47,538 bases of DNA from an uncultured bacterium (GCA_964478995.1 CAYZJY010000003.1:1-47538); one strand, 5' to 3'; positions 27,865-33,510 are shown, counted from the first letter of the stretch. Numbers and translations are program-made. Notes: generated from the sequence alone by a model not told the origin.

Positions 27865-29046
27865 ATGTTAGTCACCCCCATCATTGTACTGGGTACTCTT
27901 GCGTTATTACTTTGTTTCGCAGGGATCCTTGAATTTCAGAATCATCAGTCATCACTGAATGCAATACCATTAAGAATCCACGTTAATGGTACAAGAGGAA
28001 AATCAAGTGTAACACGGCTGATCGCTGCCGGACTGCGTGAGGGTGGTCTCAGAACATTTGCAAAAACGACAGGCACTGCTCCAAGAGTCATTGATGCTGA
28101 AGGAAAGGACAGGATCATCCACAGACTCCGGTTACCTTCCATTGGTGAGCAAGTACGTTTATTGAATTATTTTTCATCAGAACGTCCCGATGCTGTGGTC
28201 ATGGAATGCATGGCCGTCCAGCCACAGTATCAATGGATCGCTGAACACCAGATGGTAAGATCTCAGATAGGGGTTATAACCAATGTTCGACCAGATCATC
28301 TAGAGGAGATGGGCCCAACAGAGGATGATGTTGCAAACTCATTGTGTAACACGATCCCTGTTGATGGGGTCCTCATAACAGGCGAAGATCAAAAAACAGA
28401 TCTCATGAAAGATATAACCAAGGCAAATCAGTCCAAGTTCATTCGTTCGGATGAATCATCGGTCACGCAAGAAGAATTAGATAAATTTAATTACATGGAG
28501 CATCCTTCGAATGTTGCAGTCGCATTGGATGCATGTAGGGAGGCTGGTGTAGATCGTGACATTGCACTTTCAGGCATGCACAAGGTCCAACCAGATCTTG
28601 GTGCATTGATTGCGTGGAATCTTGATGTAGGGGACAAGAGGATCCAGTTTGTAAATGGCATGGCCGCAAATGACCCCGTTTCTACCCTACAAATATGGAA
28701 ATTCGTCATAGATAGATATCCTGCCGAGGGTGGTACATGTGTCTTCTTCAATTCAAGGGATGATAGACCATCAAGAACTCGCCAAATGATCGAACTATCG
28801 CTCAAAGAGATAAAACCAGATCACTTTATTGTTAGGGGTGACAAAGTTAGGAGCACGATCCAGAGACAAATACATCATTCTCCCCGATCAAAGGTCAATG
28901 TTGTTGGTCTTGATGATCCGCTGGATGATCTAATTTCAATGATCGAAGCATTGCCTCATGATACCTTGATCTATGCAATAGGAAATCAGGTGGGTGCAGG
29001 TCAACAAATATTGGAATTGATCTCAACATTTAGGCATAATGGTTGA
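27865..29046 (+). CDS. pgsB: poly-gamma-glutamate synthase PgsB/CapB (Mur-ligase-like amide ligase)
   Basis: This 393-aa protein matches B. subtilis PgsB (recalled) block by block:
- NGTRGKSSVTRL vs NGIRGKSTVTRL
- ECMAVQPQYQ vs ECMAVNPDYQ
- GVITNVRPDHLEEMGPT vs GVIVNVLEDHMDVMGPT
- FVNGMAANDPVSTLQIWK vs FVNGFAANDASSTLNIWK. Confidence 0.9.
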   Translation: MLVTPIIVLGTLALLLCFAGILEFQNHQSSLNAIPLRIHVNGTRGKSSVTRLIAAGLREGGLRTFAKTTGTAPRVIDAEGKDRIIHRLRLPSIGEQVRLLNYFSSERPDAVVMECMAVQPQYQWIAEHQMVRSQIGVITNVRPDHLEEMGPTEDDVANSLCNTIPVDGVLITGEDQKTDLMKDITKANQSKFIRSDESSVTQEELDKFNYMEHPSNVAVALDACREAGVDRDIALSGMHKVQPDLGALIAWNLDVGDKRIQFVNGMAANDPVSTLQIWKFVIDRYPAEGGTCVFFNSRDDRPSRTRQMIELSLKEIKPDHFIVRGDKVRSTIQRQIHHSPRSKVNVVGLDDPLDDLISMIEALPHDTLIYAIGNQVGAGQQILELISTFRHNG

Positions 29047-29482
29047 GATAAGCATAGGTCTAGGTATCTTTCTTAGCCTAGTGTTGTCAGAGACACTTGG
29101 CGTCACTGCGGGAGGTATCATTGTCCCTGGATACATAGCGTTATTCCTTCATGAACCGCTACAGGTCTTAGTAACATTTTTTGTGGCCATCATTGTATGG
29201 GCGATCATACAGGGTATGGGAAAAGTGATGTTCTTGTATGGAAAAAGAAGGATCGTTTTGGCATTGATACTTGGTTTTTTCTTCGGATATATATCTAGGA
29301 ACTTTATTTATTTGCCACAGGACATTGGCTCAATAGAGGTCATTGGTAATATTATTCCTGGCCTTATAGCAAATTGGATGGATAGGCAGGGAATTGTCCG
29401 TACCCTATCCGTAGTGATCCTTACTGCTGTGATGGTGAAATTGTCTGTCATATTGTTATTTGGAGGAGTCCTTTTTGAATAA
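29039..29482 (+). CDS. pgsC: poly-gamma-glutamate synthesis membrane protein PgsC/CapC
   Basis: This 147-aa polytopic protein matches B. subtilis PgsC in three blocks:
- GGIIVPGYIALFLHEP vs AGLVVPGYLGLVFNQP
- YGKRRIVLALILG vs YGRRKFAAMLITG
- IIPGLIANWMDRQG vs IVPGLIANTIQKQG

It overlaps pgsB by 8 nt. Confidence 0.85.
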   Translation: MVEISIGLGIFLSLVLSETLGVTAGGIIVPGYIALFLHEPLQVLVTFFVAIIVWAIIQGMGKVMFLYGKRRIVLALILGFFFGYISRNFIYLPQDIGSIEVIGNIIPGLIANWMDRQGIVRTLSVVILTAVMVKLSVILLFGGVLFE

Positions 29483-31482: not shown

Positions 31483-32513
31483 TGCGCTATTACATAAAGA
31501 TCATATTCACTAGCATTATAATTTCATGCCTAAATGGAGGTACTCCCATTGAGTATGGTATTACTTTCACCGGTGGATACGATAACAATGTCATGCGTTT
31601 TTCAAAGGATGAATACCAAGAAGCTTCCTATGACATGGCATTGATGGGTGGGGCAAAGACCTTTGATAGTTTTGTCACAAGATTTCGCTTCTCAGCCAAT
31701 AAATCATTGATCATCAATAATTCAAGGTCAGTCAAAATGAGTACATTCTATGCAACATCAGACTACAGAGATACGCCTGACAAGAAATATTGGTCAGGAG
31801 GAATTGACGCAACCTATAGATGGGGATCATATAAAAATATAAAATACACATTACGCCATCTTGACAAATTTTATCTCCGTCATTATGTTGATAGGGACAT
31901 AAGTATGAATGCCTTGGCCTCATGCAAGTTCACTGATAGGAATCAAGCCATTACCTTGACCCATAGATTATCAAGGTATTCATGGATAAATATTGGTTCA
32001 GGATATCTTCAGAGGTATTACTCAAAACCATTTACGGAGTTTGACCTCGACATTGTCTATTTAAAGGGCAAAATAAATTACAGGTTAAAGAACATTGGTT
32101 CTGTTGCACTCCAGATCGATCGAGGACGAGCCAATAATATTTCATACGCACCACTGTTGCGTCCAAGTAGTTTTGATCGTTCTTATCAGACCATCGAATG
32201 GTTTCTACCATTCAAGATCAATAAAAAATTAATTTTTATTAGTGAAATAGGTGTATCGGCTCGATTGGAGGTAAGAAAGTATGATGCTGAAGACCCCAAT
32301 GATCCCTTGCATTCTGGTCGTAGTCACTTAGACTCGAAATATGATCTATGGGTTAAAAAGAAAATGAGTGAAAATGTTAGTCTAACTTTTTCATCAAGAT
32401 ATAGGACACGTGTCACAGATTCAGAGTTTGCATGGGTCAATGATCTTAAAAGTTTTAAACAAATTCAACTTTGGTTTAATATTGAGTGGGACTTGATCTA
32501 TGATAAATATTAA
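31482..32513 (+). CDS. predicted outer-membrane beta-barrel protein; unknown family
   Basis: The signal/lipobox-like N-terminus is IIFTSIIISC. The whole sequence shows alternating aromatic/polar dyads (YGITFTGGYDNN, IDATYRWGSY, WINIGSGYLQRYY, VSLTFSSRYRTRV, IQLWFNIEWDLIY) and ends in an aromatic residue. Its ATG shares one nt with the upstream TGA (TGATG). Confidence 0.45.
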   Translation: MRYYIKIIFTSIIISCLNGGTPIEYGITFTGGYDNNVMRFSKDEYQEASYDMALMGGAKTFDSFVTRFRFSANKSLIINNSRSVKMSTFYATSDYRDTPDKKYWSGGIDATYRWGSYKNIKYTLRHLDKFYLRHYVDRDISMNALASCKFTDRNQAITLTHRLSRYSWINIGSGYLQRYYSKPFTEFDLDIVYLKGKINYRLKNIGSVALQIDRGRANNISYAPLLRPSSFDRSYQTIEWFLPFKINKKLIFISEIGVSARLEVRKYDAEDPNDPLHSGRSHLDSKYDLWVKKKMSENVSLTFSSRYRTRVTDSEFAWVNDLKSFKQIQLWFNIEWDLIYDKY

Positions 32514-33510
32514 AATTCAAACATCAATGGTCTTTTTTTCTCTGATGCTATTTAGTTGCATCCAGCCAGACCAGGAGAACCTCTGGTCTACATCAGTTGA
32601 AAAGACGATCAATACGAGTGGATTTTCTCGTGATGTACACATGCAAGGGGATACCGCCTTTATTGCTGCAGGACAATCAGGACTGCAGGTATGGAACATT
32701 GATTCTGAAATAATGATAGATCAATACGAGGCATTTGGCTCGGCTGACCTTGAGGATGTGGGCCGTGTATATTACGACCATTTGAATTCATTGGTCTTCA
32801 TCATGGATCAATCCAAGATCATGTTTGATGAATATGATAGTACTCTATTCGATGCTCCGACTCCAATTGGCGATAGCCACAATGAGGACTTCATTATTTT
32901 GTCAGACACATTGGATACGTTTTATATTTACTTTGTAGACCGAGATGAAGGTGATGGGTTCAAGTGGGCCCAATATGATTTTGAGGAAGTACCTTTTATT
33001 GGTGAAATATGGCAGATGCAAAGTGATGGGCAAATTCGTCCATCATCACCCATGAAAGGATTGTCCCATAGCGGTGCTCATATCGCTGTTGCGGGTGACC
33101 AATTGGGTGTTTACTTATATACCATTAGTTCAATCGGCTCAACCCCAGAATTGGTTTCAATGATCGACACTGAAGGTAATGCCGAGAATGTAAATATCGT
33201 TGATGATGGAGTATTTGTATCTTGCGATGATGCAGGAGCTTATTTCATACCGATCGGGAGTTTCTCAGGTGATGGTTCTTCCTATCGTTTTGCCGAGGAT
33301 CTTACGGTCGACCATATTGCCGTGAAGGATGATATTGCATCTCTATCACTAGGCTCAAAGGGTATTGCATTGTATGACATATCAGACCCGACCCGGCCTG
33401 AGGAGAGAGGGATCTTCCCTATTGGTTATACCTATAGGACAGTTTTTTGGAAAGATAGACTGCTGGCATGCACCCGCGAGGGAATGCATGTGATCAAAGT
33501 AGAAAAATAA
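32500..33510 (+). CDS. LVIVD-repeat-like beta-propeller lipoprotein
   Basis: The lipobox is LMLFSC. Repeated units resemble LVIVD repeats: DTAFIAAGQSGLQVWNI, AHIAVAGDQLGVYLYTI, GVFVSCDDAGAYFIPI, IASLSLGSKGIALYDISDPTRPEERG, RLLACTREGMHVIKV. It overlaps the upstream gene by 14 nt. Confidence 0.5.
   Translation: MINIKIQTSMVFFSLMLFSCIQPDQENLWSTSVEKTINTSGFSRDVHMQGDTAFIAAGQSGLQVWNIDSEIMIDQYEAFGSADLEDVGRVYYDHLNSLVFIMDQSKIMFDEYDSTLFDAPTPIGDSHNEDFIILSDTLDTFYIYFVDRDEGDGFKWAQYDFEEVPFIGEIWQMQSDGQIRPSSPMKGLSHSGAHIAVAGDQLGVYLYTISSIGSTPELVSMIDTEGNAENVNIVDDGVFVSCDDAGAYFIPIGSFSGDGSSYRFAEDLTVDHIAVKDDIASLSLGSKGIALYDISDPTRPEERGIFPIGYTYRTVFWKDRLLACTREGMHVIKVEK

Follow-up and report, generated by a model that had tools for sequence, protein, structure and literature searches.

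A stretch of 47,538 nucleotides from an uncultured bacterium (GCA_964478995.1 CAYZJY010000003.1:1-47538), hereafter the window, carries a cassette of six co-directional, overlapping open reading frames (ORFs) on the plus strand at 27865-33510, with all coordinates counted along the whole stretch. The cassette opens with the poly-gamma-glutamate (PGA) synthase genes pgsB (27865-29046, 393 aa) and pgsC (29039-29482, 147 aa) and continues with O3 (29460-30626), which matches the TIGR04332 'poly-gamma-glutamate system protein' family. These are followed by O4 (30604-31482), encoding a secreted basic protein with two homologous beta-sandwich (jelly-roll-like) domains, O5 (31482-32513), modelled as an outer-membrane beta-barrel of 14 strands whose family had not been annotated before, and O6 (32500-33510), encoding an acidic lipoprotein that is a putative LVIVD-repeat beta-propeller. 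Successive genes overlap by 8, 23, 23, 1 (TGATG) and 14 nt, and the six ORFs and their junctions, first described in a prediction made from the sequence of the window, were reproduced. Profile matches, structure models and gene-order comparisons suggest that the cassette is a six-gene operon for a trans-envelope PGA system in Marinimicrobia, a reading to which we assign a probability of about 0.6, with O4 to O6 probably forming the periplasmic and outer-membrane leg for export or display of the polymer.

Profile hidden Markov model (HMM) searches, which had been proposed together with the original prediction, placed the first three proteins above the cutoffs of PGA-related families. PgsB matched the TIGR04012 equivalog over its full length (residues 8-385) with 414 bits against a cutoff of 223 and also matched PF08245 (Mur_ligase_M), and its P-loop GTRGKSS was invariant across the cassette loci. 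PgsC scored 118 bits with the TIGR04011 equivalog (cutoff 96) and matched PF14102 (Caps_synth_CapC) with an E-value of 7.7e-32. The predicted identity of both genes was therefore upheld, and by these matches pgsB encodes the putative ATP-dependent amide ligase subunit and pgsC the putative integral-membrane subunit of a PGA synthase. A comparison of the PgsB profile with PDB sequences returned only FolC (4e-4), which is not a useful relative.

The product of O3, which directly follows and overlaps pgsC, scored 292 bits with TIGR04332 (cutoff 100). Four partners unlike those of Bacillus had been put forward as novel; the first of these is a member of this known family, while O4, O5 and O6 did match no curated family. 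Hydrophobic segments at residues 14-47 and 348-371 make O3 bitopic at both ends, as had been described, and the domain of about 300 aa between them is predicted to be periplasmic. Translation probably starts at TTG 29475 (383 aa) rather than at TTG 29460, since a perfect Shine-Dalgarno sequence, GGAGGAG at 29462-29468, precedes the former and 383 aa is the length of most of the O3 homologs listed. The best 120 O3 homologs were all from close Marinimicrobia relatives and included no other phyla, and the O3 profile matched nothing among PDB sequences and has no solved relative there. Homologs of O3 in Marinimicrobia metagenome-assembled genomes (MAGs) already bear the TIGR04332 name, and NCBI gives a name of the TIGR04332 type also to the Francisella CapA (PMC5362203). 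PgsF, the third gene of the Gram-negative-type PGA operon in a 2025 preprint (10.1101/2025.11.11.687785), is probably the TIGR04332 family; no other bacterial paper on PgsF was found.

As in Bacillus pgsBCA(E)/capBCADE, the operon begins with equivalogs of PgsB and PgsC in this order, and the third gene, in the PgsA/CapA position, has a product that is anchored in the membrane and carries a large domain outside the cytoplasm. It differs from the Bacillus system in its three extra envelope genes, its diderm host and the lack of the remaining Bacillus-type parts. No PGA_cap/CapA match was found in the six cassette proteins (Pfam, E ≤ 1) or in 27 neighbouring ORFs (E ≤ 0.001-0.01), with four nested antisense ORFs of at least 120 aa lying outside the scan, and Pfam gave no CapD/GGT or NlpC/P60-type (PgdS) match among the same 33 ORFs, in agreement with the predicted absence of CapA and CapD/Ggt. 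The overlapping junctions leave no space for a separate small PgsE/CapE gene, although a search with a dedicated PgsE model was not made.

The AlphaFold2 model of O5, built on a 34-sequence alignment, had a predicted local distance difference test score (pLDDT) of 83 and a predicted template modelling score (pTM) of 0.75 and consisted of a signal helix and 14 long beta-strands. Nearly all of the top 50 PDB structures listed by Foldseek were outer-membrane barrels or barrel-containing complexes, and all seven with E ≤ 0.001 among the matches listed were outer-membrane porins (OccD2/OprD and OmpE36). The PelBC barrel appeared at rank 34. The best template modelling (TM) scores were to the 14-strand barrels OmpG (2iwv; 0.47 on the query and 0.56 on the target) and CymA, which share the strand number of O5 but only about 10% sequence identity, and O5 has its own motifs and genomic context. 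The window copy matched nothing in Pfam or NCBIfam and belongs to no curated family, and 47 diverse members of the O5 family gave only weak matches to curated families (OMP_b-brl in 3/47 and TIGR04327 in 1/47). The models thus describe O5 as an outer-membrane barrel outside any solved family, as had been anticipated from its sequence texture.

An HMM search recovered 311 cluster representatives of the O5 family at E ≤ 1e-3, and the family motifs included GYDSNxLRLS, YLRxYxDRD, FTEFD and DPLHSGR. The C-terminus is aromatic, with tyrosine as the last residue. Hydrophobic and polar residues alternate along the strands, giving an aliphatic and aromatic face and a polar face with 23 K/R/H and 10 D/E, and a net basic lumen is suggested by this pattern. 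Three residues, R133, R265 and R310, were basic in 98% or more of the aligned family members, in an alignment with a mean column identity of 25%. O5 is a candidate PGA conduit. The single TIGR04327 match ('LA_2444/LA_4059 family outer membrane protein', Leptospira) came from one O5-family member with an E-value of 1.4e-5 and was absent among 20 members that were re-scanned; it hints at a possible distant counterpart of the O5 barrel in Leptospira.

O4 likewise had no family match in Pfam or NCBIfam. Its AlphaFold2 model (pLDDT 81, pTM 0.51) showed a signal peptide helix followed by all-beta domains at residues 37-155 and 164-291, and the two halves were homologous to each other with an hhalign probability of 99.5%. 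The top Foldseek matches were tandem CBM22 and CBM51 modules at an E-value of about 1e-6, but with whole-chain TM-scores of only 0.2-0.3. The isoelectric point (pI) was 9.75 for the window copy, with a median of 9.6 over 61 orthologs. The structure prediction suggested with the original prediction therefore yielded both the barrel of O5 and the tandem beta-sandwiches of O4, and the description of the latter as a basic, secreted two-domain protein was borne out. O4 is a candidate periplasmic PGA-binding adaptor of the barrel.

O6 carries a lipobox, LFSC, with Cys20 and has a pI of 4.2, and its orthologs were uniformly acidic (median 4.2 over 39). The window copy scored 15.7 bits with LVIVD (PF08309), below the cutoff of 20.2, and exceeded the threshold of no other Pfam or NCBIfam family, while nine of ten positional orthologs matched PF08309, with 91 bits for the best, which favours the LVIVD-like beta-propeller lipoprotein originally proposed. 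O6 was present in 33 of the 52 loci with O4 and O5 and would accordingly be an optional accessory component of only some lineages, as judged from its distribution.

Linkage of these genes to the synthase was surveyed from the pgsB side in GTDB species representatives, at least 595 of which have this PgsB type. The best 80 PgsB loci were annotated with iterated HMMs, and 62 of them had at least 5.5 kb downstream of pgsB. Both pgsC and O3 were found in 61/62 loci, O4 and O5 in 52/62, and all six genes in 33/62. The genes detected with pgsB were pgsC, O3, O4, O5 and O6 in 33 loci, pgsC, O3, O4 and O5 in 19, pgsC, O3 and O4 in three, and pgsC and O3 only in four; two loci had pgsC, O3 and O5 with O4 undetected (one with O6 too), and in a single locus pgsB stood alone. 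Carriers of O4 and O5 included Marinimicrobia, a Caldithrix-labelled MAG, Cloacimonadota, Ignavibacteria, Bacteroidales/Rikenellaceae and Zixibacteria. Most of the Cloacimonadota loci had O4 and O5 directly downstream of the first three genes, and spacing within the cassette was minimal across phyla.

The same arrangement was recovered from the O5 side, where all eight relatives with enough flanking DNA were located after pgsB-pgsC-O3-O4; three further relatives (P0262, P0303 and P0348) were on contigs too short to enter this count. Distant O5 relatives, at about 20% identity, kept this position in unrelated flanks. In one locus (L006) the cassette was preceded by TsaE, TsaD and CdaA and followed by EndoV and NUDIX, another (L010) had flotillin and NfeD downstream, and a third (L011) had TopA and a tRNA synthetase upstream with TldD and PmbA downstream, while GcpE with HtrA formed another unrelated flank pair. 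The distant O5 members in L093, L094 and L095 were likewise placed after pgsB-pgsC-O3-O4. Synteny with close O5 relatives (46-53% identity) was set aside as uninformative, the whole region being collinear there, pilus and peptidase genes included.

Natural fusions join O4 to O5. Two Cloacimonadota species had a single stop-free ORF of about 640 aa with both O4 domains and O5 (L071:12686-14605 and L083:8846-10783), and in P0348 a protein of 498 aa joined a single O4-type domain to the barrel. Pairwise identities of PgsB and O5 were correlated (Spearman 0.83, and 0.62 among distant pairs). The linkage of the downstream genes to pgsBC that had been predicted is thus kept across phyla in unrelated flanks, both in the 62-locus survey and around the eight O5 relatives, and we regard this comparison of gene order as decisive evidence for the cassette as a unit.

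Gene packing within the window contributed less. The cassette is part of a run of co-directional genes of about 41 kb (1654-43139) in which 13 of 27 junctions overlap, and such tight packing is a trait of a streamlined genome and alone is weak evidence for functional linkage. The original prediction had described the genes as welded together by overlapping stop and start codons; the junctions are correct, and translational coupling was discarded as evidence because of the frequency of overlaps in the run. A scan for promoters and terminators found as many as expected from shuffled sequence and provided no transcription-unit boundaries.

The names of homologs place the host in the Marinimicrobia (SAR406, Neomarinimicrobiota, Fidelibacterota). 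The window includes type IV pilus genes, among them one for a secretin, several proteins with type IX secretion system (T9SS) C-terminal domains, and C25 and M14 peptidases, and these marks identify the host as a diderm, as had been predicted from the secretin, the T9SS domains and outer-membrane barrels. In such an envelope, PgsB and PgsC would by their profile matches form the synthase of the inner membrane, which uses ATP to polymerise glutamate and pushes the growing chain out, with O3 holding the place of the Bacillus PgsA/CapA. The basic O4 would capture the polyanionic chain in the periplasm and dock on O5, and the chain would then cross, or be anchored in, the outer membrane by way of the net-basic lumen and its three family-invariant arginines. 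O6 may be an optional aid at the outer membrane, in assembly, retention or processing. These roles of O4 to O6, and with them PGA export by way of O5, are inferred.

Several other explanations were weighed against this scheme. The downstream genes could be merely adjacent, unrelated envelope genes in a streamlined genome, and both the common overlapping junctions (13/27) and the collinearity of close relatives over the whole region would fit. The identical order in unrelated flanks across phyla, the association of all eight O5 relatives with pgs genes, the O4-O5 fusions and the co-divergence of PgsB and O5 effectively refute mere adjacency, which we consider scarcely credible. If the genes do act together, O4 to O6 might instead be a surface-anchoring or organising module that holds a PGA capsule exported by another route, in a role like that of CapD attachment in B. 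anthracis. The basic O4 and net-basic O5 would be equally able to bind PGA as anchors, the O6 lipoprotein could be surface-exposed and 14 strands make a small barrel by the standard of polymer porins. The chain must nevertheless cross the outer membrane, and the cassette has no conserved outer-membrane protein other than O5, with no other outer-membrane route encoded in it or conserved beside it; a role in anchoring a polymer exported by another route is in our estimate unlikely.

The polymer might alternatively stay in the periplasm or not be classical PGA; it would then be a gamma-glutamyl polymer of the periplasm or envelope (an osmolyte or a metal buffer, for example), with O4 to O6 acting in turnover, sensing or envelope remodelling. 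An outer-membrane partner is missing from the TIGR04332-type loci of Spirochaetes, Planctomycetales and Nitrospirales, and Francisella, in which PGA is not known to have been demonstrated, has a TIGR04332-type CapA. This explanation is rather improbable, as PgsB and PgsC score as PGA synthase equivalogs, no hydrolase motifs or folds were seen in O4 or O5, and a step at the outer membrane is indicated by how tightly and repeatedly the synthase is coupled to a barrel of that membrane, fusion of the barrel with O4 included. It is conceivable too that O5 is an uptake porin for glutamate or peptides that feed the synthase and O4 its periplasmic binder, since a net-basic lumen fits an anionic amino acid, the best TM-scores were to the small-solute porins OmpG and CymA, and secreted peptidases are encoded nearby in Marinimicrobia. 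The fold of O4 is tandem CBM-like and not that of a solute-binding protein, the cassette has no conserved importer for the inner membrane, other phyla keep O4 and O5 but not the neighbouring peptidase genes, and a binder-porin fusion is atypical for uptake, so that uptake appears quite improbable.

Other points weigh against a trans-envelope PGA system with O5 as the conduit. The charge of the O5 lumen was deduced from the parity of residues in the strands rather than from the coordinates of the model, acidic residues (D139, E186, D188 and D274) are conserved alongside the basic ones, and GYDSN, a conserved segment at the N-terminal end, could act as a plug. Known polymer porins have 16-18 strands, and the 14-strand barrel of O5 is smaller. 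The 80 loci surveyed were those most similar to the window copy and hence biased toward its relatives. Loci of the Spirochaetes, Planctomycetales and Nitrospirales end at O3, and Flavobacteriia keep O4 with other proteins in the place of O5; the O4-O6 module is not universally required, because of these lineages. PGA is not known to have been reported for Francisella, although its CapA is of the TIGR04332 type, and for that reason the product of the TIGR04332-type clade is not fully certain. The function assigned to the cassette, whether production, export or localisation of PGA, is a computational prediction.

The Flavobacteriia/Bacteroidetes loci keep pgsB-pgsC-O3-O4, but the place of O5 is taken by two other proteins, a lipoprotein of the transthyretin/CarboxypepD_reg type (about 240 aa) and a secreted protein without annotation (about 300 aa; L059:6517-8065, L061:13646-15197 and L074:10346-11933). 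The latter was considered as a remote O5 relative and rejected (hhalign probability 1%), and it may be an alternative outer-membrane leg.

Among the closest described arrangements is the Gram-negative three-gene locus of capB, capC and a TIGR04332-type gene (Francisella capBCA, Cloacimonadota), which corresponds to the first three genes of the cassette, whereas here and in most of the loci examined from the Fibrobacteres-Chlorobi-Bacteroidetes (FCB) group O4 and O5 follow immediately. The accounts of Gram-negative PGA loci that were found end at three genes and mention no outer-membrane component. The Cloacimonadota operon has been described as CapB, CapC and PgsF and called "typical" of Gram-negative producers, and the terms "outer membrane" and "export" are absent from that preprint (10.1101/2025.11.11.687785). 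Fusobacterium nucleatum is the only demonstrated Gram-negative PGA producer in the literature found (PMC4928254, PMC3815933). This diderm producer qualifies the earlier description of the characterised PGA machinery as a complex of monoderms. No paper was found that ties PGA to an outer-membrane route, or to Marinimicrobia. The passage of a long polyanionic peptide over the periplasm and outer membrane of a diderm is not treated in the literature found.

An analogy with synthase-dependent exopolysaccharide systems had also been drawn, and its functional logic held. The systems for alginate (Alg8/44-AlgK-AlgE), poly-N-acetylglucosamine (PgaABCD), cellulose (BcsABC) and Pel (PelBC) likewise combine an inner-membrane synthase, a periplasmic polymer handler joined or fused to an outer-membrane barrel, and optionally an outer-membrane lipoprotein, and the net-basic lumen of AlgE, which serves an anionic polymer, has a parallel in O5. 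The analogy did not extend to parts or ancestry. The cassette has no glycosyltransferase, cyclic di-GMP receptor or tetratricopeptide repeat (TPR) scaffold, with no TPR or glycosyltransferase domain in the six proteins, and its barrel has 14 and not 16-18 strands and is combined with a tandem beta-sandwich, a beta-propeller lipoprotein and a polyamide polymer. No sequence homology of the cassette to the exopolysaccharide systems (AlgE, PgaA, BcsC and PelB included) was detected.

What is new in the cassette is the conserved O4-O5(-O6) envelope module, the synthase core and TIGR04332 being known already. We put even odds on the broader proposal that O4 to O6 represent a previously unrecognised, dedicated outer-membrane secretion route for the anionic polyamide PGA, one that many lineages of the FCB superphylum and its neighbours share, the abundant ocean clade SAR406 among them. 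The biology and biotechnology of PGA are almost wholly based on Gram-positive Bacillus systems, and the cassette provides three conserved, unannotated protein families as candidates for the missing outer-membrane step. The scheme predicts that O4 binds PGA, that O5 is an anion-selective channel and, because natural fusions exist, that O4 and O5 interact. If the broader proposal is correct, many uncultured diderms would be coated with PGA or release it, which would matter for dissolved organic nitrogen in the sea, for the binding of metals and for the formation of particles. As the carriers include the globally abundant Marinimicrobia and the Cloacimonadota of anaerobic digesters, PGA could be overlooked in marine and anaerobic extracellular polymer pools. 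The cassette could also permit PGA secretion from Gram-negative production hosts.

Some individual loci departed from the general pattern. In a Bacteroidales MAG (L080:3-5747), O5 and O6 were located upstream of pgsB-pgsC-O3-O4, so that the order was permuted and the genes were still contiguous. In an Ignavibacteriales MAG (L072:13107-15896), O4, O5 and O6 were detected as many short HMM fragments, which indicates frameshifts from assembly errors or pseudogenes. A Calditrichaeota MAG (L065:9998-11149) had an orphan pgsB-like ligase with a SpoU methylase after it and no pgsC or O3 to O6 downstream. Some cassette homologs (P0393, P0457, L060, L063 and L069) carried implausible taxon labels, namely Marine Group I thaumarchaeote, Euryarchaeota, Puniceispirillum/Alphaproteobacteria and Dormiibacterota, and their contigs are probably mis-binned or mislabelled MAG pieces.

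Within the window, the type IV pilus cluster (9313-24242) is complete, is located directly upstream and runs in the direction of the cassette. Its genes encode a pilin, PilB/PilT-type ATPases, PilM, PilN, PilO, the secretin, T2SSF and a prepilin peptidase. Gingipain-like peptidases of family C25 and an M14 carboxypeptidase bearing a C-terminal T9SS domain are encoded around the cassette at 24251-27841, 36558-38864 and 38843-42028. Such C25/M14 genes were also found beside the cassette in the Marinimicrobia contexts L001, L004, L010 and L094 and not in other phyla, and they could reflect lineage synteny or a link to glutamate supply or PGA processing. The gene at 33543-36554 encodes a protein of 1003 aa in which a T9SS C-terminal sorting domain is the sole recognisable part. 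ORFs of comparable length (about 1006-1044 aa) were located just 3' of the cassette in the Marinimicrobia loci L001, L004, L043 and L094.

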